From an uncultured Gammaproteobacteria bacterium (GTDB taxonomy: Bacteria; Patescibacteriota; Patescibacteriia; UBA1558; GWA2-36-10), in assembly GCA_964633905.1 (NCBI GenBank), contig CAZWIT010000001.1, positions 329 through 64,328 of the forward strand: a DNA stretch of 64,000 nt, given 5' to 3'. The notes beneath the pieces are model-generated. The model saw only the letters and a list, made by a program, of their open reading frames with translations, was not told the DNA's origin and did no database searches. Made by a program: the position numbers and the translations under genes. Shown here in pieces: positions 1,030 to 47,852 of the stretch (position 1 is the first letter of the stretch; each line of letters starts with the position of its first letter).

Positions 1030-3504
1030 CTATTTGATAATTATTTTTTCTTTTTCCAAAGATAAATTAATATTTTTTTGTTTATTGCTTAGCAATTGTT
1101 TGGCAATCATGTTAGTAATAGTCTCATCAACTAAACGTTGTAAACTACGGGCGCCTTCTTTGCTGGCTTTAGCATTTTTAAGCAGATAATTAATAATAGT
1201 TTTATCAAATTTTAAATTGATATTTTGTTTAGCTAAGCTTTGTTGTAAATTTTCTAAATTTAGAGTAATTATTTTTTTGGCAGCTTGGATAGAAAGTGGT
1301 TCAAAGACAATAACATTATTTAAACGATTGATAAATTCAGGGGGGAAATAATTATTCAAAGAAGAGGTAATACGCTTGCTAGTTTTTTGCCAATCAGTAA
1401 TTGGTTTTTTTTCTTCTTCAGTAGTAAACCCAAGCTCTGCTTGTTGGTTAAAATCTTGTAAGCCAACATTTGAAGTCATGACGATAATGCAATTACGGAA
1501 ATTGACAGTACGTCCAGTAGCGTCAGTTAGTTCGCCTTCTTCTAAAATTGGTAAGAGCAAATTATAAACATCAGGATGAGCCTTTTCTACTTCATCAAGT
1601 AGTATTAGAGTATAAGGTTTGTTTTTGACAACATCAGTCAGCTTATTACCTTCACGATAGCCAACGTAACCAGCTGGGGCGCCGATTAGTTTTGAAATAT
1701 TAAAGCTTTCGGCAAATTCAGACATATCTATTCTTAGCATATTGTGAGTGCCACCAAAAACATATTGTGCTAAACGTTTGGCTGTTTCGGTTTTACCAAC
1801 ACCAGAAGGTCCTAGCAGTAGAAAAGAGGCTAGGGGCTTATTGCTAGCACCTAAGCCAGTTTTAGCTTGGCGAATAGTATTGGCAATAGTAGTCAAGGCT
1901 TTGGCTTGGCCAAAAATATGTTGGCTTAATTTTTTTTCTAAATTGAGTAATCGTTGATTGTCGTCGCTAGTTAGGTTAGTGCTGGGAATACCGGTCATTT
2001 CCGAAATAATACTTTGGATATTGCTGGCATTGATTTTGCCTAATTTAGCTTTTTGTTGTTTGTCTTCTTGGGCTTGTAGTTTTAGTAATTCTTCAATATG
2101 TTTGTCTTCTTGATCTTTATAATTTATAGCCGATAAATAATCTTCGGCAAGTATGGCTTGCTTTTTATTTTCTTGAGCATTGTTTATTTTATCTTCTTGC
2201 GCCTTAATTTGTTTAGCTAAACTATTTTTAGTATTTAAAACTTTAATTCTAGCAGCTGCTTCGTCAATTAAATCAATGGCTTTATCGGGCAATTTTTTAT
2301 CTGGTAAAAAGCGCTTACTTAAAACAACAGCTGCTTCTAAAGCATCGTCTTCAATGTTTACTTTATGAAATTTTTCGTAGTTTTTACGAATACCTTTTAA
2401 AATTTCTAAAGTTTCGGCTTCAGTTGATTCATTAATAATTATTGCTTGAAAACGCCTTTCAAGAGCGCGGTCGCTTTCAATATGTTTTTTGTATTCTTCA
2501 AAAGTAGTGGCGCCAATGCAACGCAGACTGCCTCTTGCTAAAGCAGGTTTTAAAATATTAGCCGCATCCAGTGATCCAGCGGTAGCGCCAGCGCCCATAA
2601 TAGTATGCAGTTCATCGATAAATAAGATAATGTTGGGATTATCTTTGATATCATTTATAATTTGTTTTAAGCGGCTTTCAAATTCACCCCTGTACATAGT
2701 GCCAGCTAAAAGGCTAGGGATGTCTAAATTTAATATTTTTTTATGTAATAAAACATCAGGCACTTGGTTTTCTAAAATACGTTTAGCTAGCCCCTCAATA
2801 ATAGCAGTTTTGCCAACGCCAGCATCACCCAAAAGAACGGGGTTATTTTTGGTGCGACGAGACAAAATTTCGATTAAACGATTAATTTCTTTTTCGCGAC
2901 CGATTACAGGATCAATATCAGCTTGGATTTTGGAGCTAGTTAAGTTAATAGTAAAATTATCCAAAGGGCTATTGTCGCCTAAATTTTCTTCAATCATATT
3001 TTCTAGTTCGTGAATTTTTTCATCACTGGCTAGATCATTAAATTTGGAAGTGCTTTTTAAAACTAAGCTTAAATGTTGGCGTAAATTTTTTAGATCAATA
3101 TTAGCAGCCGCAAAAGTAAGTTTTGTTTCTTCGTCTTCATTTTCAGATAATCCCCAAAGCAAATGCTCGGTGCCAACATATTTGTGTTGGAATTTATAAG
3201 CTGTTACCACGGCTTTTTCAATAATTACTTGCAAGGCTGGGGACGGTTGCGGTAAATCATTAGGATTAATATTTTCAGTTTGGTAATCAGTGCTAATGGT
3301 TTGGCTAATAAAATCTTTATTGATATTTTGTTTTACCAAAATATCAGAGCCTAGAGCTCCTTTGGTATTTATTAAAGAGGCGAGTAAATCAACTACTTCA
3401 ATTTGATTAGCCTTTTTAGCAAAGGCAATATTTTGGGCGTTGATTAAGACCTTTTTAAAATGATAAGTAAATTTATCTAAAATATTTTGTGACTGATCAA
3501 ACAT
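1030..3504 (-). CDS. clpC: AAA+ chaperone ClpC (ATP-dependent Clp protease ATP-binding subunit)
   Basis: Clp_N repeats at the N-terminus. Two Walker A motifs are present (GDAGVGKTAI and GPSGVGKTETAK). The middle domain is short, about 75 aa, which is ClpC-type and not the long ClpB M-domain. An LGF tripeptide loop for ClpP docking is present. Length is 824 aa. Confidence 0.85.
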   Translation of the reverse strand: MFDQSQNILDKFTYHFKKVLINAQNIAFAKKANQIEVVDLLASLINTKGALGSDILVKQNINKDFISQTISTDYQTENINPNDLPQPSPALQVIIEKAVVTAYKFQHKYVGTEHLLWGLSENEDEETKLTFAAANIDLKNLRQHLSLVLKSTSKFNDLASDEKIHELENMIEENLGDNSPLDNFTINLTSSKIQADIDPVIGREKEINRLIEILSRRTKNNPVLLGDAGVGKTAIIEGLAKRILENQVPDVLLHKKILNLDIPSLLAGTMYRGEFESRLKQIINDIKDNPNIILFIDELHTIMGAGATAGSLDAANILKPALARGSLRCIGATTFEEYKKHIESDRALERRFQAIIINESTEAETLEILKGIRKNYEKFHKVNIEDDALEAAVVLSKRFLPDKKLPDKAIDLIDEAAARIKVLNTKNSLAKQIKAQEDKINNAQENKKQAILAEDYLSAINYKDQEDKHIEELLKLQAQEDKQQKAKLGKINASNIQSIISEMTGIPSTNLTSDDNQRLLNLEKKLSQHIFGQAKALTTIANTIRQAKTGLGASNKPLASFLLLGPSGVGKTETAKRLAQYVFGGTHNMLRIDMSEFAESFNISKLIGAPAGYVGYREGNKLTDVVKNKPYTLILLDEVEKAHPDVYNLLLPILEEGELTDATGRTVNFRNCIIVMTSNVGLQDFNQQAELGFTTEEEKKPITDWQKTSKRITSSLNNYFPPEFINRLNNVIVFEPLSIQAAKKIITLNLENLQQSLAKQNINLKFDKTIINYLLKNAKASKEGARSLQRLVDETITNMIAKQLLSNKQKNINLSLEKEKIIIK

Positions 3505-3505
3505 A

Positions 3506-4372
3506 TTACATGCTTCTTAAAGCGTTAATTCTTTTTTCAATAGGGGGGTGAGTAGAAAATAGATTGTTAGCTCCTGCTTTGAATGGGTTAGAAATATAAA
3601 GATGAGCCGTAGCTTTATTAGCGTGTGCTAAGGGCTGATTTTGTTTACTAATTTTTTCTAAAGCTCGAGCTAAACCCTCTGGGTAGCGAGTTAAGAGAGC
3701 GCCCGAAGCATCAGCTAAAAATTCGCGTCGGCGGGAAATAGCTAGTTGGATTAATTTGGCGAATATCGGCGATAAAATAGCTAAAACAATACCAATAATA
3801 GCGATTAAGCCGTTGTTATTTCGATCAGAGCCGCGGCTACGAAATAGGGAACCGCGGATTAACCAATCGGCTAGTAGTGTAATAACACCTACGCAAACAA
3901 TGACTATCATCATTAAGCGGATATCATAATTTTTAATATGAGAGAGTTCGTGGGCAATGACACCTTCTAGTTCTTCATTTTCAAGAGCACTTATAATACC
4001 AGTGGTAAGGGCGATGGAGGCGTGTTTAGGATCTCGGCCAGTAGCAAAGGCATTCATGCTGCTATCATTGATAATATAAACTTTGGGCATAGTAATGCCA
4101 CTGCTAATACTTAAGTTTTCAACTAAACGCCAAACATAAGGATTATCTTCTTTTTTTATTTCTTGAGCGCCAGCTGTGCTTAAGGCGATTTTATCGCCAG
4201 CAAACCAGCTTACTAAATTCAAAGTAGTAGCCAAAATAATAGCCAGAATTACTGGAGTATAACTATCATTACTGTAGTATCCCCAAGCCCAAGCTAGAGC
4301 GACAATAACTAGGGCAAAAATAAACATTAAGAGCCAACTTTTGCGTTTATTACTATCAATTTGATTATACAT
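3506..4372 (-). CDS. htpX: Zinc metalloprotease HtpX (M48 family)
   Basis: HELSHI HExxH motif, N-terminal transmembrane helices, 288 aa, adjacent to lemA, which is a common pairing. Confidence 0.85.
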   Translation of the reverse strand: MYNQIDSNKRKSWLLMFIFALVIVALAWAWGYYSNDSYTPVILAIILATTLNLVSWFAGDKIALSTAGAQEIKKEDNPYVWRLVENLSISSGITMPKVYIINDSSMNAFATGRDPKHASIALTTGIISALENEELEGVIAHELSHIKNYDIRLMMIVIVCVGVITLLADWLIRGSLFRSRGSDRNNNGLIAIIGIVLAILSPIFAKLIQLAISRRREFLADASGALLTRYPEGLARALEKISKQNQPLAHANKATAHLYISNPFKAGANNLFSTHPPIEKRINALRSM

Positions 4373-4440
4373 GTTTAGAATTTTATTTTGTTAACTTATT
4401 TATAAAACTATAATATTATAAAGGCTTTTTGTCAATAATT

Positions 4441-4484
4441 AAAAAATAACCTTCGAGGTCGCGTGACCTCGAAGGTTATTTTGT
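4441..4484. terminator. Bidirectional intrinsic terminator between lemA and htpX
   Basis: Perfect 13-bp stem aaccttcgaggtc-gcgt-gacctcgaaggtt, flanked by an A-run on one side and a T-run on the other. Confidence 0.6.
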
Positions 4485-4492
4485 TGTCCATT

Positions 4493-5047
4493 TTAAAATT
4501 GTACTTTAACGTTTTCTTTTTCTTCTCCCTTGGCTTCAAAATATTCATAAGCAGTAAATTTCAACATGCTAGCAATCAGGTTAGTGGGGAAGACTTGAAT
4601 TTTAGTATTAAAGTCTCTAACTTGACCATTGTAGAAACGACGAGAGGCTTGGATTTTATTTTCGGTGTCAGAAATTTCATCCTGTAATTGTAAAAAGTTT
4701 TGGGAAGCTTTGAGTTCGGGGTAACCTTCAGCAACAGCAAATAAACTTTTTAAAGTACCAGATAAAGCATTTTCAGCTTCAGCTTTGCTTTGAGCACCAG
4801 TGGCTTGCATGGCTTGACTACGAGCTTGAGTAACTTTGGTAAAAACACTGTCTTCGTGTTTCATATAACCACGAACAGTTTCGACTAAGTTAGGGATCAA
4901 ATCATAACGTCTTTTGAGTTGGACATCAATGTCTGACCAGGCTTCTTGCACTCTATTTTTGAGGCGGATTAAAGAATTGTAAACACCGGCTAGCCAAAGT
5001 AGCAATAATATGACTATGACTAGGACGATTATTAATGCAGTAGGCAT
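4493..5047 (-). CDS. lemA: LemA family membrane protein
   Basis: N-terminal TM helix followed by the characteristic LemA sequence ([36 protein letters not shown]). Confidence 0.85.
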
Positions 5048-5232: not shown

Positions 5233-6189
5233 ATGAAGACTTATAAACCAAACCTGATTTTGTCTCTTTTGGTATTAATTGTTTCTTTTTTAAGCATTTT
5301 GGTAATTAATAAACAAGTATTTGCAGTTTGGTATTATCCTCAGGATACACCACCAAATACTAGTATTAATAATAATTTTGTTTTTAATCCAGCTACCGAA
5401 AATTTTAATCTAGGTACTTATAGTTTGTGTTTAGGCGGTGTTTGTAAAGATGCTTGGCCAGCTGGTGGAGGCGGGGGTAGCGATGCTAATTGGTCTATTA
5501 ATACCGCTAGTAGTAATGATTTGTATTATACTACTAGTAGCCCAGCTAGTGGTGAAGTAGGCATTGGTACTAGTACGCCTAATAGTTTGTTGCATTTATA
5601 TAAAATTAGTGGCAATAACGCCGAACTTGATATTCAAAGCGCTGCTGGTGTTAATAATCATTGGGGTATTTATCAAGATCGCTCAAGTAAAGATTTACGA
5701 TTTTGGCAGGGCAGTAATCGAGTTACTTTTGCTGATAGTGGCGAAGTTAGTATTGGTGCGGATCCAGTAGTTGGTGTGCCCTTGTATGTAAATAGTAGTT
5801 CGGCATCTGTATCAATTTTTGCTAATAATACTTATCTAGGCATAGGCGGTGGTACTGGCTTTATGGGCATAGGTACTGGTACAGGTATATTAGGATCAGC
5901 TCCTATTTATGGTGTTCAAGGTATATCTTCGTCTGCTACTGTTGCTACTGGGGCTGGTATATATGGTCAAAATTTTGCTGGTGGTTTAGCGGCTAAATTT
6001 GATGGACCTATTGCTTTAAATGGTAATACTACAGTAGCAAGTGGTAGTTATTTGCAAATTTCAAGTGGCAAATTAGCCCCAGTAGCTGGTGCTTGTACTG
6101 CCAGTGATAGCGGTAGATTATATCTTGCTACTGATGTGCCTACTTTATATTTTTGTAGTAAAGGTACTTGGCTAGGCCTTGTTCCATAA
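5233..6189 (+). CDS. Secreted glycine-rich, fibre-like protein (signal peptide, Gly/Thr/Ser-rich repeats)
   Basis: N-terminal signal/anchor MKTYKPNLILSLLVLIVSFLSILVI...FA. Long runs of GxG/TGxG and no catalytic motifs. A single C-terminal Cys pair is present. It sits immediately upstream of the giant Cys-rich protein and the pilus operon. Confidence 0.6.
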   Translation: MKTYKPNLILSLLVLIVSFLSILVINKQVFAVWYYPQDTPPNTSINNNFVFNPATENFNLGTYSLCLGGVCKDAWPAGGGGGSDANWSINTASSNDLYYTTSSPASGEVGIGTSTPNSLLHLYKISGNNAELDIQSAAGVNNHWGIYQDRSSKDLRFWQGSNRVTFADSGEVSIGADPVVGVPLYVNSSSASVSIFANNTYLGIGGGTGFMGIGTGTGILGSAPIYGVQGISSSATVATGAGIYGQNFAGGLAAKFDGPIALNGNTTVASGSYLQISSGKLAPVAGACTASDSGRLYLATDVPTLYFCSKGTWLGLVP

Positions 6190-32639: not shown

Positions 32640-33015
32640 TGGTGGAGATGAGGGGGATTACACCCCTGTCTGGAAAGTGTAGAAACAGATTTCTACCAGC
32701 CTAGTTAATTTTTTTGTTTTAATACTTAGCTTGAAAATTAACAAAATGCTAAATATCTAGTTAACAAAATTTCAGGCTAAATAAGTTAACGTTATTTAGC
32801 TTAAAGCCTGTTTTATAACGCCTGCTAAATCCGCTCAGGCTAGCAAATTTAGAGACGGTCTTAGGTTAAGCTAAGACTGGGGAGAGCTGAGGAGCTAAAA
32901 GCCCTTTGACTCTCGCAAATAAGTTGTTTTTGGCACTTATTGTTGTACGATTTTACAGTTCGCGAACTGGCTGGCCATCTATCCTTTCACTAACCGTCGA
33001 ATATGAAACATCCCC
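32640..33015 (-). ncRNA. ssrA: tmRNA (ssrA)
   Basis: The minus strand begins GGGGAUGUUUCAUAUUCGACGG, matching the tmRNA 5' consensus GGGGnnGnnnnGGAUUCGACGGG. It ends ...CAGGGGUGUAAUCCCCCUCAUCUCCACCA. The acceptor stem contains the G3-U70 alanine identity pair. A T-arm-like GGGGG/CCCCC stem is present. It lies directly downstream of smpB. Confidence 0.8.
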
Positions 33016-33028
33016 GTAAATGAAAAGG

Positions 33029-33475
33029 TTAATTTTTGAGATGTTGCGCAATACTACGCTTCAACTCACGTTTTTTGATGTCCTGTCGTTTGTCAAATTG
33101 CTTTTTTCCTTTAACTAAAGCGATTTTCATCTTAATTAACCTGCGCGTAGTATACACTGAAACCGGCACTATTGTCAAGCCCTTGGAGTCGGTTTTATTG
33201 GCTAAATATAGCATTTCTTTACGGTGTAATAGTAAAGCGCGTTCCCGTTCTGGGTTATAGGAAGCCAAAGTTTTAGCCGCTTTTTGGTAAGGGGCAATAT
33301 ACATTTTTTTAAGAGTTGCTTTGTTATTTTTTATAGAAATAAAGGCACCTTTTAAATCAGCGTGTCCAGATTTTAAGGATTTTACCTCTGGTCCTGTTAA
33401 AACTAAACCAGCCTCCATTTCTTCTAAAACCTGAAAGCTACGGTTAAAACTTTTATTATGCACTAGTGTCCCCAT
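33029..33475 (-). CDS. smpB: SsrA-binding protein SmpB
   Basis: 148 aa with conserved SmpB sequence (GLVLTGPEVKSLKSG..., KKMYIAPY, C-terminal basic tail). Confidence 0.9.
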   Translation of the reverse strand: MGTLVHNKSFNRSFQVLEEMEAGLVLTGPEVKSLKSGHADLKGAFISIKNNKATLKKMYIAPYQKAAKTLASYNPERERALLLHRKEMLYLANKTDSKGLTIVPVSVYTTRRLIKMKIALVKGKKQFDKRQDIKKRELKRSIAQHLKN

Positions 33476-39184: not shown

Positions 39185-39576
39185 TGCCGACTATTAAAGT
39201 AAATCAAGATTTTAGTTTGACTATTAAAAAGTCAAAGTTTTTGGCTTATGCTTTTAAAGTAAGTAGTGAAGCTGAAGTTCTTCAATTTTTAGTTAATCTA
39301 AAAAAAGAGCATAACAAAGCTAGGCATATTGTTTATGCTTATCGAATTTTAGAATCAGGTCAAATAAAAGAAAGGGTACATAATGATGGTGAACCCAGTA
39401 AATCGGCTGGCTGGCCAATTTATAATCTCCTCAAAATGCAGGATATTGTTGACTGTTTAATAGTAGTAGTGCGTTATTATGGTGGTATTAAATTGGGAGT
39501 AGGCGGTCTGGTACGAGCTTACACGGAAGCGGCTCAAACAGTAATCAAGGATAATTTAACGAATGTCAGATTTTAA
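39184..39576 (+). CDS. IMPACT/YigZ family protein (UPF0029)
   Basis: Conserved HIVYAYRI...GEPSKSAGWPI...GGIKLG segments of the IMPACT N-domain. Confidence 0.75.
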   Translation: MPTIKVNQDFSLTIKKSKFLAYAFKVSSEAEVLQFLVNLKKEHNKARHIVYAYRILESGQIKERVHNDGEPSKSAGWPIYNLLKMQDIVDCLIVVVRYYGGIKLGVGGLVRAYTEAAQTVIKDNLTNVRF

Positions 39577-40126
39577 AACCATTAGCTTGGCTGGTCAAAA
39601 TATAAATTATCAATTGCGTCGTCGTTTAAGGATGAAGTACGTGCGTTTAAGTATTGGCGTAGATGGTGTTTTAGTAGTAAGTGCACCCAAGCGTTATCCG
39701 CAGTTTTTATTAAAGAAATTAATTTTAAATAAAATAAACTGGATTCAGGCAGCTACTTGCAAACGTTTGGCTAAGCCTAGTATTTTTCGAGAGCAACACA
39801 GTATTCAAGAAGTAAAACAATATAAACTTTTAACTAAAAAATTGGTTTTAGAGCGCTTGCAACATTTTAATAATTTTTATAATTTGAAATATAAAAAAGT
39901 TACTATTCGTAAAGCTAGTAGCCGGTGGGGGAGTTGTTCTAAGCAAGGGAATTTAAATTTTAATTATCGTTTGTGTTTGCTTGATTCAAAACTGTTAGAT
40001 TATATTGTGGTGCATGAATTATGTCATTTACAAGAGTTTAATCATAGTAAAGCTTTTTGGGGCTTAGTAGCCAAACAATTTCCAGACTATAAAATTTTAA
40101 AACAGCAATTAAAAAGTTTAGCTTAA
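39563..40126 (+). CDS. YgjP-like metal-dependent hydrolase (DUF45, SprT-like)
   Basis: WGSCS...NFNYRL followed by the HELCHL zincin-like motif. Confidence 0.75.
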   Translation: MSDFKTISLAGQNINYQLRRRLRMKYVRLSIGVDGVLVVSAPKRYPQFLLKKLILNKINWIQAATCKRLAKPSIFREQHSIQEVKQYKLLTKKLVLERLQHFNNFYNLKYKKVTIRKASSRWGSCSKQGNLNFNYRLCLLDSKLLDYIVVHELCHLQEFNHSKAFWGLVAKQFPDYKILKQQLKSLA

Positions 40127-40385
40127 TATAAAAATGTCTTTATTTGACATTTTTTATTTTTCTGTTAAATTATTAGGGTTAATCTTTTGTTTTTTCGTTC
40201 CGGTGCCGTAGGGTCATGCCTCCACCGCCGGGCTGGTTGCTGGTTTTTTCGGTCGGGCTATATTATGTTCGGCAGAATGCGACTTGTTTCCCCGCAAGTC
40301 GATAAACCAACAGCCTACTCTACGGCACCTCAAATTCTGACCACCACTTTGGTGGTCTTTTTTTATTTTTTTAAGAAAATGAAAA

Positions 40386-40437
40386 CCGCTCGCCCGCCAC
40401 TGCATAAATGCAGGGCAGGGCGAGCGGTCGTAGTCGC
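40386..40437 (-). terminator. Strong nested hairpin terminator, acting on the minus strand
   Basis: ccgctcgccc ... gggcgagcgg 10-bp stem with an inner ctgcat-aaa-tgcag hairpin. On the minus strand it is followed by TTTTCATTTTCTT. Confidence 0.55.
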
Positions 40438-40449
40438 AGGGAGCAGAGC

Positions 40450-40555
40450 TAGAAGGTCTTGATGATGCCGATGGCGCTGTTTGTCGCGCCATCATCGAAC
40501 AGCGGTGGCGATCAGCAGGCTGATCAGCAGGGCGGCGGCGATGATCTTCTTCATC
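40450..40555 (-). pseudogene. Small signal-peptide-like ORF with an apparent -1 frameshift, inside the GC-rich island
   Basis: The minus strand has a GAGGAG Shine-Dalgarno 8 nt before ATG 40555. The reading frame gives MKKIIAAALLISLLIATAVR-stop. A -1 shift continues as DDGATNSAIGIIKTF-stop, ending 13 nt before the terminator hairpin. Codon usage is high-GC. Confidence 0.3.
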
Positions 40556-40701
40556 TCTTATACTCCTCAAGTCAAGGGACGGACAATGCTTAACAGCCTA
40601 GAATTAGGCGGTTTCAGCGTTAACTACTATATTATAGCATATATATATTAAATTGTCAAGATGTAGCTAAAGTGATTTTATTCTGATAAAATTAGAGCAC
40701 T

Positions 40702-41127
40702 ATGCCATGCTTTTTTTGTGACATTCAAGATCAAAGAGATCCGCAGCTGATTACAGCTAATGATTTTTTTGTAGCGCGCTTTGATGATTTTCCAGTTGCC
40801 AAAGGCCACTGCGAAATTTTTCCTAAAGAGCATATTGAGTCAGTTTTTGATTTACCTTCTGAACAACAGTGGGCATTTTTTGATATTATAAATAAAGTAA
40901 AAAGTATTTTGGAAGAAAAATATCAGCCCGATGGTTTTAATATTGGTATTAATGAAGGTCGGGCAGCAGGTCGCACTATGGATCATTTACATTTGCATGT
41001 GATACCTCGTTATTGGGGTGATATAGATCACCCGCGTGGCGGAGTCAGAAATATTATTCCTAGTAAAGGTGATTATAAAAAAGATATCCAGGCTCGTCCT
41101 GATCGCATTAAATATTTTAATGAATAA
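40702..41127 (+). CDS. HIT family hydrolase (histidine triad)
   Basis: HLHLHVIP histidine-triad motif. Length 141 aa. Confidence 0.8.
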   Translation: MPCFFCDIQDQRDPQLITANDFFVARFDDFPVAKGHCEIFPKEHIESVFDLPSEQQWAFFDIINKVKSILEEKYQPDGFNIGINEGRAAGRTMDHLHLHVIPRYWGDIDHPRGGVRNIIPSKGDYKKDIQARPDRIKYFNE

Positions 41128-46282: not shown

Positions 46283-46666
46283 ATGCGATTTATTTTTAAT
46301 AACCCTAATTTTAAATTAATACGTAGGGGTTTGCGTCAGCAAATGACGGATGCAGAATTATTATTTTGGTCAAAAATAAAAAATAAGCAATTATGCGCTT
46401 ATAAATTTCGTAGGCAATACAGCATTGGTCCGTTTATTGTTGATTTTTATTGTCCAAAATTAAAACTTGTTATTGAAATAGATGGTAGTCAACATGCTAA
46501 ATTAGACATTATTAATTATGATAGCTCTAGAACGGCATATTTTCAATCTATGAACATAAAAGTTATTAGATATTGGAATCACGAGATAATGAATAATATA
46601 GAAGGTGTTTATATTGATTTACAAGAACAAATCAAAAAAAGAAGGAAAGAGTTCGATTTTGTTTGA
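46283..46666 (+). CDS. DUF559 domain protein (Vsr-like endonuclease fold)
   Basis: Conserved DUF559 segments (TDAELLFW, YKFRRQ, FIVDFYCPKLKLVIEIDGSQH, VIRYWNHEI). Confidence 0.75.
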   Translation: MRFIFNNPNFKLIRRGLRQQMTDAELLFWSKIKNKQLCAYKFRRQYSIGPFIVDFYCPKLKLVIEIDGSQHAKLDIINYDSSRTAYFQSMNIKVIRYWNHEIMNNIEGVYIDLQEQIKKRRKEFDFV

Positions 46667-46743
46667 CAGACCTTTTATTATTTGTTATAGATTAAACAAC
46701 TTTAGTTCTTCACTCAAAACCCTAGCTCCGAAAGGAGGTGTGT

Positions 46744-46911
46744 CATGTGTCTGCCGGAAATCAGGCAAAGGCCGAATGGCGAACGCATCGTGGTTAGCCA
46801 ATTTGGCGGGCGGAGGTATCCGCCAGAAGAAGAAGCTATTATTCTGGCGCAGGCTGACAGAGAAGCGGAGGCGAAAAAGTCGCCCCCAAAAACCATCAAT
46901 CCAGAAAATTG
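46744..46911 (+). CDS. Small 55-aa ORF with its own Shine-Dalgarno and terminator, GC-enriched
   Basis: AAAGGAGGTG Shine-Dalgarno 6 nt before ATG 46744. Translation: MCLPEIRQRPNGERIVVSQFGGRRYPPEEEAIILAQADREAEAKKSPPKTINPEN. The stop at TGA 46909-46911 was verified codon by codon. A ccagcg...cgctgg hairpin plus T-run follows. The ORF is about 52% GC. It is too short to appear in the ORF track. Confidence 0.4.
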
Positions 46912-46920
46912 AAGAGAGTG

Positions 46921-46948
46921 TCCAGCGGCTACTTAGTCGCTGGTTTTT
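46921..46948. terminator. Bidirectional terminator (small ORF / miaA)
   Basis: ccagcggctacttagtcgctgg hairpin followed by TTTTTATTTT. Confidence 0.6.
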
Positions 46949-47852
46949 ATTTTAAGAAATTATTTATCTCTTCTTTAATATCGCTTAGAGCTAAATTCCA
47001 ATGTATTTTTAAGCCTTGTTTTTCCATGCGACGAAACCAAGTCATTTGCCTTTTGGCATAGTGACGAGTGTTTTGTTTGATGAGTTCTAGAGCTTTATCT
47101 AGTGTAATTTCATTATCTAAATATTGGATGATTTCGCGGTAGCCAATGCCGGATAAGGCAGGACTATTTTTGTCCTGATATTTTTGATAAATAGTTTTGA
47201 CTTCAGCTACTAAACCCAGAGCTACCATTTGATCAACACGTTGATCAATTTTTTTGTACAAAGCTTTTCTCTCTGGGTCAATACCAAAAATGAGGTAGTC
47301 AAAAGCACAGTCACCGGATTTTTGACCAGCTTTGATACTAGCTTTAAAAGCCAAAGCATATTCTAAAGCTCGCAATACTCGGACTTTATTGTTAATATCA
47401 ATAGTTTCTAAAATTTCCGGATCAGAAATTTCTAGTTGCTTGATTAGCTGTTCAAGACTATGTTGCTCTAGTTCTTTGCGTAAAGCTAAATCAGTTTGCG
47501 GTAACTGGTAGTTTTGCAAAATAGAGGATAGATACAATCCCGTGCCGCCACAGATTATTGGGAGTTTGTGCTGTTTATGAATTTCATCAATGGTAGCTAA
47601 AGCTGCCTGCTGCCAGTCGTGCAAAGAATATTCTTGATCAGGCCTAACTATATCTAACAAATAATGTTTGATACCATCTTGCTCTAAGAGAGTAGTTTTG
47701 TTACTGCCGATATTGAGCTCTTGGTAGATTTGCCGAGAATCAGCTGAGATGATTTCGCCCTTAAAAATTTTTGCAATTTCTACAGCTAAAGATGACTTGC
47801 CAGAAGCAGTCGGACCGAGGATTACTATTATTTTGGGTTTAATATTTGGCAT
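46947..47852 (-). CDS. miaA: tRNA dimethylallyltransferase
   Basis: P-loop ILGPTASGKSSLA, with the IISADSRQIY region typical of MiaA. Confidence 0.9.
   Translation of the reverse strand: MPNIKPKIIVILGPTASGKSSLAVEIAKIFKGEIISADSRQIYQELNIGSNKTTLLEQDGIKHYLLDIVRPDQEYSLHDWQQAALATIDEIHKQHKLPIICGGTGLYLSSILQNYQLPQTDLALRKELEQHSLEQLIKQLEISDPEILETIDINNKVRVLRALEYALAFKASIKAGQKSGDCAFDYLIFGIDPERKALYKKIDQRVDQMVALGLVAEVKTIYQKYQDKNSPALSGIGYREIIQYLDNEITLDKALELIKQNTRHYAKRQMTWFRRMEKQGLKIHWNLALSDIKEEINNFLK

Follow-up and report, generated by a model that had tools for sequence, protein, structure and literature searches.

A GC-rich intergenic island with a broken barrel-protein cassette and, in convergent orientation, a predicted structured RNA gene

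Within a 64,000-nucleotide stretch of contig CAZWIT010000001.1 (here called the window, to which all coordinates refer unless preceded by the number of another locus), a gap of 575 nt separates a YgjP-like gene (39563-40126, plus strand; PF01863) from a HIT gene (40702-41127, plus strand), with which a deoxynucleotide operon of HIT, dCMP-deaminase, and ThyX genes begins on the plus strand. The gap is occupied by an island in which the G+C content (GC) jumps abruptly. The original prediction described a 63% GC island at 40187-40570; the peak is indeed abrupt and is the strongest in the window, but this segment is 52.6% GC, as compared to 34.4% for the window as a whole, and only the sub-block 40385-40554 is as high as 61%. 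The GC-richest 384-nt stretch in the 64 kb lies at 40201-40584 (53.9%, 4.6 standard deviations over the mean of 0.344), and the second-ranking stretch of that length reaches 0.50. Our reading, to which we assign a probability of roughly 0.8, is that the island is made up of two transcription units, each self-contained, that converge: a broken cassette for a barrel protein on the minus strand and, on the plus strand, an undamaged gene for a structured small RNA (sRNA). Approximately half of the GC signal comes from the protein-gene remnant and not from the RNA. The two opposed terminators are ~20 nt apart, and because each transcript would end at its own terminator, the two are not expected to overlap.

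The minus-strand unit has a predicted promoter (40630-40659, TTGACAATTTAATATATATATGCTATAATA) that matches the σ70 consensus at 12 of 12 positions and is TG-extended, with TTGACA at 40659-40654, a 17-nt spacer, and TATAAT at 40636-40631. This is followed by a conserved 5' untranslated region (UTR) of ~65 nt (40555-40625, minus strand) composed of a hairpin (GCCUAAUUCUAGGC, 40596-40609), a motif (UGUCCGUCCCUUGA, 40572-40585), and the Shine-Dalgarno sequence GAGGAG (40563-40568), the last of which had been recognized correctly in the original prediction. The same elements precede cassettes in L008, L010, and L097 (related loci are designated by L numbers; exact look-up of the proteins flanking the island led to other contigs). 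Next comes an open reading frame (ORF) of 20 codons, MKKIIAAALLISLLIATAVR plus stop codon (40492-40554, minus strand; ATG at 40554), the first 18 codons of which specify the Sec signal peptide of a 184-residue protein. The gene for that protein is intact in L002 (2299-2853, minus strand), from the unrelated sequencing run DRR784968, where it encodes MKKIIAAALLISLLIATATLAAGN...DDGATNSAIGIIKTF, with the same signal peptide and the same ...IIKTF end. Alignment with L002 placed a deletion junction at 40502-40503 (minus strand), with a 2-nt GC microhomology; the 449-bp internal deletion takes out approximately codons 19-168, and outside it the window and L002 are identical except for two single-nucleotide differences in the 5' UTR. 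Beyond the junction lies the 3' remnant of the gene (40449-40501, minus strand), aligned with the intact gene of L002, which contains the last 16 codons, ends in ...FDDGATNSAIGIIKTF and a stop codon (40451-40449), and lies in a different frame from the 5' remnant. As the deletion is not a multiple of three and nothing but the signal peptide and the final 16 codons survived it, the copy in the window is a pseudogene. Thus, the small ORF that had been noticed earlier does exist and does encode a signal peptide, but it is a truncated barrel protein and not a small membrane protein; likewise, the sequence ...DDGATNSAIGIIKTF does read on in another frame, but owing to the deletion rather than to a -1 frameshift. 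The cassette terminator (40373-40428, minus strand) is an interrupted hairpin (40385-40428) with 21-nt arms that are 86% complementary, followed by the U-rich sequence TTTTCATTTTCTT, and is of a sequence type common to the cassettes of relatives (CGAYTACRACCGGTCG...CGACCGGTTTTCATTTT). Its hairpin begins ~20 nt past the true stop codon, so that the terminator had been identified properly but not its distance of 13 nt. Annotation would report the pseudogene either as nothing or as a 20-residue peptide.

The plus-strand unit is a predicted sRNA gene of ~185 nt (40178-40364), delimited by a promoter, a fold, a terminator, and homologues, with a predicted transcription start. Upstream of it is a promoter-like site (40144-40171, plus strand) with TTGACA at -35 (40144-40149), a 16-nt spacer, and a TG-extended -10 element, TAAATT (40166-40171); the site is conserved in L010 and L008, and its TTGACA is also found in L015. 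The RNA would begin with a U-rich 5' tail, followed by a core (40197-40337), a 9-nt linker, and an intrinsic terminator (40339-40364, plus strand), GACCACCAC-UUU-GUGGUGGUC with seven U residues, whose hairpin (40339-40357) has eight pairs, five of them G-C, and shows one compensatory pair in L010 and L008. The core is closed by a 13-bp stem, P1, formed by GGTGCCGTAGGGT (40202-40214) and ACTCTACGGCACC (40317-40329) on the plus strand, which is seen both as an inverted repeat and in the consensus fold and which encloses a P2 hairpin, P3, and two variable hairpins, P4 and P5. This long-range pair had been pointed out in the original prediction, where it was assigned to the same transcript as the small ORF; it belongs instead to a separate gene on the plus strand. 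The conserved junction sequences are GGGUYAUGCCU, GGCUGG, and CAACNGCCUACUC.

The fold of the plus strand has a minimum free energy of -72.9 kcal/mol (z -6.6), and its minimum-energy structure equals the centroid, as compared to -59.2 kcal/mol (z -4.1) and a diffuse ensemble for the reverse strand. Searching with nhmmer revealed homologues beside YgjP in L015, L010, L008, and L009 (E 1e-16 to 1e-21), and in the resulting alignment promoter, core, and terminator are all conserved. A covariance model (R1) gave the known copies scores of 132-155 bits. There are 51 pairs in the consensus fold, with 96.6% of cells paired; twelve pairs are changed on both sides, as compared to zero to two when the partners are slid, and none of 500 shuffles reached the observed value, the covariation being drawn from three distinct sequences. 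P1 itself appears as GGUGCCGUAG / CUACGGCACC, GGCGCCGCAG / CUGCGGCGCC, and GGCGCCGUGG / CCACGGCGCC. Sequence conservation is concentrated at the junction of P1, P2, and P3, and P4 and P5 are variable in both length and sequence; insertions and deletions are not multiples of three, and changes are compensatory rather than codon-like. Invariant G-U pairs, which are possible only on the plus strand, fix the strand of the RNA. As judged by its promoter-like site, terminator, and conserved structure, the element is an independently transcribed sRNA gene, its expression being predicted from these features.

A gathering-threshold scan of the window with Rfam 15 (4,227 families) returned only a tmRNA (32640-33015, minus strand; 110 bits) and one tRNA, a permissive scan of 39900-40900 gave as its best match RyhB (E 0.49, terminator hairpin only), and ARAGORN found no tRNA-like or tmRNA-like structure in the sRNA. 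By these sequence comparisons, the sRNA is a previously undescribed structured RNA with no Rfam family. A resemblance of CCGGGCU / AACC..GCCUAC to P4 of RNase P was rejected on the basis of size and the lack of an Rfam match. Exact-pattern scans of viral contigs, GTDB species genomes, and Joint Genome Institute (JGI) metagenomes yielded no matches in any of the three, such scans requiring ~24-30 fixed bases exactly and hence missing weakly related copies. Nor did model R1 detect anything further in ~700 kb of related loci, which took in 80 distant Patescibacteria YgjP loci, the fusA-tuf islands described below, 15 distant-barrel loci, L097, L113-L115, and L116. In L097, L116, and L012 the sRNA is absent and the cassette terminator abuts the YgjP stop codon. 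Of the explanations offered in the original prediction, a fossil of a small-protein-plus-sRNA module came nearest: the protein gene is a fossil, but its product was not a small peptide, and the RNA is intact and lies on the opposite strand.

Two observations touch on the setting of the sRNA. The tmRNA, which adjoins a probable SmpB gene (33029-33475, minus strand; assigned by synteny with L012 and L116), is only 39% GC; a high GC is thus not required of native structured RNAs in this genome, and against that background the 55% GC of the sRNA core stands out. The YgjP stop codon is followed directly, at 40130-40160 (plus strand), by a weak AT-rich hairpin (AAAAUGUC-N7-GACAUUUUU) whose 3' arm is formed by the -35 hexamer of the sRNA promoter; termination of YgjP transcription and initiation of the sRNA may therefore overlap, and some sRNA may arise by read-through from YgjP.

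What is the protein encoded by the intact cassette? Pfam holds no family for the 184-residue protein at E values up to 10, and none for its homologues P0010 and P0018 at E values up to 1. A word-index search recovered 12 close homologues, and a profile built from them matched ~400 cluster representatives with E values of 1e-3 or lower, 114 of them at 1e-10 or lower; their lengths are all ~120-240 residues. One of these matches, with the source name "Patescibacteria group bacterium," lies on a 697-kb contig. AlphaFold modeled the protein as a signal helix and 12 antiparallel strands (predicted local distance difference test score, pLDDT, 86.7; predicted template-modeling score, pTM, 0.74). When this model was compared to the Protein Data Bank (PDB) with Foldseek, the best matches were to KdgM (4fqe and 4pr7; E ~3e-5, template-modeling score 0.52-0.58), with further matches to a designed transmembrane barrel, NanC, OmpG, and OMPLA. 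On the evidence of the model, the intact protein is a small secreted 12-stranded barrel of the outer-membrane type, porin-like, and a member of an unannotated family. It resembles the KdgM/NanC porins (PDB 4fqe, 4pr7, and 2wjq) in its predicted 12-stranded antiparallel barrel of ~165 mature residues, its Sec signal peptide, and its C-terminal Phe. Unlike them, it is only ~10% identical, with no detectable sequence similarity, and its hosts appear to be Patescibacteria, that is, members of the Candidate Phyla Radiation (CPR), the described members of which are reported to be monoderm (PMC8871954). Membership in the KdgM sequence family is not supported, there being no Pfam match at E values up to 10. 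Among the scanned proteins of the 64-kb window there was neither BamA nor an Lpt protein, and a literature search for barrel proteins or GC-rich cassettes in Patescibacteria came up empty. A distant homologue of the barrel protein (32% identity) is encoded at 5001-5555 of L098 (IMGVR_UViG_3300010379_000109), a contig classed as viral; this homologue shows no GC excess (0.47, as compared to 0.49 in its flanks).

The best relatives of the YgjP-like protein in GTDB species genomes, at 41-46% identity, belong to Wolfebacteria, Paceibacterota, Nomurabacteria, and similar groups; closer homologues carry the names Patescibacteria or Parcubacteria, and the window encodes functions typical of small genomes, including a type IV pilus ATPase. 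Relatives whose YgjP is 50-83% identical all have GC-rich minus-strand cassettes straight after the YgjP gene. L008, L009, and L010 have two cassettes in tandem, one for the barrel protein and one for an unrelated, 198-residue secreted beta protein, each with its own promoter, UTR hairpin, GUCCGUCCC motif, Shine-Dalgarno sequence, and related terminator. The barrel gene and the second gene form an operon in L015 and L113. In L113 the second gene (L113:941-1534) has an in-frame TAG and was called as fragments of 64 and 116 residues; this gene is a second independent case of cassette decay. The L113 contig stops exactly where the terminator of the sRNA would start. Single genes are found in L097 (a different barrel-like gene, ending ...AWIMDF) and L116 (a homologue of the 198-residue protein, 44% identical), and L012 has only a homologue of the barrel gene, of 190 residues. 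With one or two cassettes drawn from three barrel families, some of them also broken, the site behaves as a hot spot for the gain, loss, and decay of cassettes. The motif TTGACAA-N13-TGCTATRAT was present in 18 of the 112 loci that were fetched and in none of 80 distant YgjP loci; it lies upstream of the cassette gene wherever its position was compared, including the distant members L104-L107, and it occurs once in the window.

GC-rich DNA has few stop codons, which accounts for spurious ORFs on the wrong strand or in the wrong frame over the cassettes and for their misplacement by gene callers in L097, L116, and L008. Long spurious antisense ORFs cover the cassettes of L097 (3167-3862, plus strand; the real gene is L097:3179-3763, minus strand) and L116 (5589-6338, plus strand; real gene L116:5622-6389, minus strand, with an internal start), and the second cassette gene of L008 was called on the wrong strand (2867-3424, minus strand; real gene L008:2871-3467, plus strand). 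In L009, L010, and L015 the callers chose the right strand for the cassettes. In the window, ORF lists place long spurious ORFs at 40187-40462 (plus strand) and 40214-40570 (minus strand).

We considered several other explanations for the island. That it is an assembly chimera, or a contaminant fragment joined into an AT-rich contig, as had been proposed, might be suspected from the sharpness of the compositional step and from the fact that contigs of relatives sometimes stop at the boundary between cassette and sRNA, as in L113. This we find scarcely credible. The Logan assembly of SRR13355620 (L001) provides a 701-nt sequence that is 100% identical to 40060-40760 and spans both junctions; L002, from its independent run, reproduces the junctions with a longer version of the insert, having the same flanks, plus-strand RNA, and terminators and an intact barrel gene; and at least five other assemblies have diverged homologues of the whole arrangement at the corresponding position 3' of YgjP, with syntenic versions in L008, L009, L010, and L015. 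Promoters of the AT-rich host type and U-tract terminators are embedded within the island, and BLASTN of the island found no match in a plasmid collection or in E. coli genomes. Another of the explanations offered in the original prediction, a recent import from a high-GC, proteobacteria-like donor that is now decaying with its composition unadjusted, is improbable but less easily dismissed. The codon composition is indeed foreign and of a high-GC type: GC at third codon positions (GC3) is 0.82 in the barrel gene and 0.24 in host genes, and more broadly 0.75-0.92 in cassette genes, as compared to 0.23-0.30 in the host genes of the window and 0.36-0.37 in the EF-Tu and EF-G genes of L005 (0.82-0.92 versus 0.23-0.30 when set against the claim of recent import). 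In addition, the outer-membrane-type fold is typical of diderm bacteria, the content of the site differs among relatives, and pseudogenes are observed. Recency is what fails. The barrel gene has diverged in parallel with the flanking YgjP gene, the nucleotide identities of the two being 0.80 and 0.81 between L002 and L010 and 0.76 and 0.75 between L002 and L015. Third-position identity in the barrel gene is only 0.62-0.69, and GC3 is still 0.82-0.87 in every lineage; many synonymous changes have thus accumulated while GC3 stayed high, which argues for long residence with a maintained GC bias. Even distant family members (25-38% identity) are GC-richer than their flanks in most of the loci retrieved (for example, 0.54 versus 0.30), and from host to host the gene is accompanied by conserved promoter, UTR, and terminator modules. 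Finally, every match with a known context or source name is on a Patescibacteria-type or AT-rich contig, the host being known for these matches only, since most word-index and whole-library profile matches carry no source name. An integrative island at a tRNA or sRNA gene was rejected as well: a repeat scan showed no direct, att-like repeats bracketing the island, and the loci contain no recombinase.

Other alternatives concern the RNA and its relation to the cassette. Read along the minus strand, the closed structure follows the cassette, and the P1 inverted repeat can pair on either strand, as would be expected of a 3' UTR element of the cassette transcript. The cassette terminator intervenes, however, the conserved G-U pairs become A-C mismatches on the minus strand, the minus-strand fold is diffuse and the plus-strand fold well defined, with the energies given above, and a conserved promoter and a U-tract terminator flank the RNA on the plus strand; we regard a 3' UTR element as very improbable. 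Still more so is a pair of the type I toxin-antitoxin kind, in which the hydrophobic 20-residue peptide (MKKIIAAALLISLLIATAVR) would be opposed by a convergent regulatory sRNA. The short hydrophobic ORF has a strong Shine-Dalgarno sequence, and the convergent RNA gene is only ~130 nt away, but the peptide is the signal peptide of a deletion-truncated 184-residue protein, the genes of relatives are full length, the two transcripts would each end before meeting, and complementarity between sRNA and mRNA does not exceed that of shuffled controls (duplex z ~0). The alternative that we take most seriously, while still thinking it unlikely, is a riboswitch-like sensor that would allow ligand-dependent read-through, antisense into the cassettes or, ancestrally, into the HIT / dCMP-deaminase / ThyX operon. 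In its favor are the order of promoter, P1-closed junction fold, 9-nt linker, and intrinsic terminator, the conservation of the junction as against the variable outer stems, the placement of the RNA, head-on to the cassette 3' end in every genome that bears it, and the fact that the next plus-strand genes are those of the deoxynucleotide operon. On the other hand, the terminator stem varies between lineages with no matching upstream change, the terminator is strong (eight pairs, five of them G-C, and seven T residues), no known aptamer class matches, and the RNA is missing in L097 and L116, both of which keep the cassettes and the operon. The next gene on the same strand, HIT, lies past one or two convergent cassettes.

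Returning to two convergent units, we suggest that the sRNA would act as a discrete stable RNA whose conserved junction could bind a protein or a small ligand. Being aimed head-on at the 3' ends of cassettes, it could also control them by occasional antisense read-through. As for the cassette, its GC bias would be actively kept, possibly by selection on the mRNA or on codons or by GC-biased gene conversion. A CCUCAA / UUGAGG match to the Shine-Dalgarno sequence, present in the window and L010, is not retained in L015.

Several considerations weigh against one or another part of this interpretation. It is the position of the RNA that suggests its control of the cassettes; the energies of duplexes between the sRNA and cassette leaders were no better than with shuffled leaders, and inspection of the alignment by eye for an antiterminator disclosed no conserved or covarying pairing. 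The RNA is so far limited to three distinct sequences in one narrow clade, and its absence from relatives that keep cassettes (L097, L116, and L012) indicates that it is neither essential to them nor universal. The promoters, the transcription start, and the stability of the RNA are all predicted from sequence. The barrel fold is likewise a prediction, on which three of five AlphaFold models agree, the other two having failed. Because described CPR cells are reported to be monoderm (PMC8871954), the membrane for which the barrel would be destined is unexplained. Lastly, the host appears to be of the Patescibacteria type, an assignment drawn from YgjP homologues of 41-46% identity and from source names rather than from a marker phylogeny.

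In their architecture, the cassettes recall the phage "morons" reportedly described by Hendrix and colleagues, said to be autonomous promoter-gene-terminator units of deviant composition that lie between conserved genes. Like morons, each is self-contained, comprising one ORF between a strong promoter and a terminator of its own; its GC is far from that of the genome; it is inserted between conserved genes; and it is present, absent, or swapped among close relatives. Unlike morons, the cassette resides in a bacterial chromosome, where no prophage genes adjoin it; members of its family turn up repeatedly at one chromosomal site and diverge together with the host, and only the one distant homologue, without GC excess, was found on a contig classed as viral. 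Arrays of integron cassettes offer a second comparison, in that the site is a hot spot at which small ORFs, unrelated to one another and deviant in composition, vary in number, and the fusA-tuf islands (L005-L007) have one strong promoter and several ORFs with a repeated structured element between them. These repeats, however, precede the ORFs and include the Shine-Dalgarno sequence, and so are leader-like rather than attC-like, and cassettes of the window type each have their own promoter and terminator. An integron cassette array was rejected since no gene called at any locus has an integrase domain; no search aimed at attC folding was made. The sRNA, for its part, is reminiscent of the structured noncoding RNAs that have been found as GC-rich intergenic regions in AT-rich genomes (PMC6429828, PMC11109978, PMC8723152). 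As in those cases, a long GC-rich intergenic region holds a structured RNA supported by covariation; it differs in matching no Rfam 15 family and in being confined so far to one narrow clade.

Contamination and recent transfer, the usual explanations for a GC island in an AT-rich genome, both fail here. The cassettes raise the question of what force keeps their codon composition off the genomic equilibrium, whether selection at the level of mRNA or translation or, at a hot spot of recombination, biased gene conversion, and of what role an outer-membrane-type barrel plays in bacteria considered to be monoderm and reliant on host cells. It is conceivable, if doubtful, that CPR bacteria maintain under selection GC3-rich, strongly promoted cassettes for porin-like barrels, directed to the outer membrane of a host bacterium or to an unrecognised outer layer of their own, to which one clade has added a structured RNA that gates them by antisense transcription. 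The sRNA adds a covariation-supported structured RNA that is small enough for direct biochemistry.

In another lineage, the barrel gene is found within a multi-gene GC-rich island between fusA and tuf. These islands (L005:3560-5950, L006:2300-5010, and L007:2400-5320) are 2.4-2.9 kb in length and 56-60% GC, as compared to ~40-43% for the host, contain two to five small ORFs for secreted or membrane proteins, and are inserted in opposite orientation between the genes for EF-G and EF-Tu in an otherwise conserved str operon. Their promoter is nearly identical to the consensus promoter of the window cassette. Every ORF is preceded by a repeated structured leader of ~130-160 nt (L005:3845-4003, 4590-4721, and 5298-5431; L006:3547-3716, 3866-4003, and 4593-4736; L007:3614-3773, 4357-4496, and 4818-4961), a copy of which is also found at L013:3386-3555. 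The leader consists, in order, of a hairpin (GGGGACGG...CGTCCCC), a long hairpin (CUCAUCCGAAU...UUGAGAUGAG) whose interior is variable and apparently compensated, a third hairpin, and a Shine-Dalgarno sequence. It has no match in Rfam at E <= 0.1 and may be a processing or translation element. The UGUCCGUCCC motif of the window resembles the 3' arm of the first hairpin of the leader.

Finally, we note two further places at which GC is raised. The window has a second small stand-alone unit at 46660-46950 (plus strand; GC ~50%), for which neither Pfam nor Rfam gave a match and which consists of TTGACA-N17-TATAGA, the Shine-Dalgarno sequence AGGAGG, an ORF of 56 codons (46746-46913; MCLPEIRQRPNGERIVV...), and an intrinsic terminator at ~46921-46950. 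Upstream of a LiaF-like gene, the strain with the intact barrel gene (DRR784968) differs from that of the window (L004:1000-2220 versus L003:1600-2400): it has three small ORFs (77, 69, and 166 residues), and ~600 nt of the stretch (~1000-1600) have a GC of 45-55%; at this place in the window strain, Mfd is followed by an ORF of 191 residues. This stretch may be another variable island.

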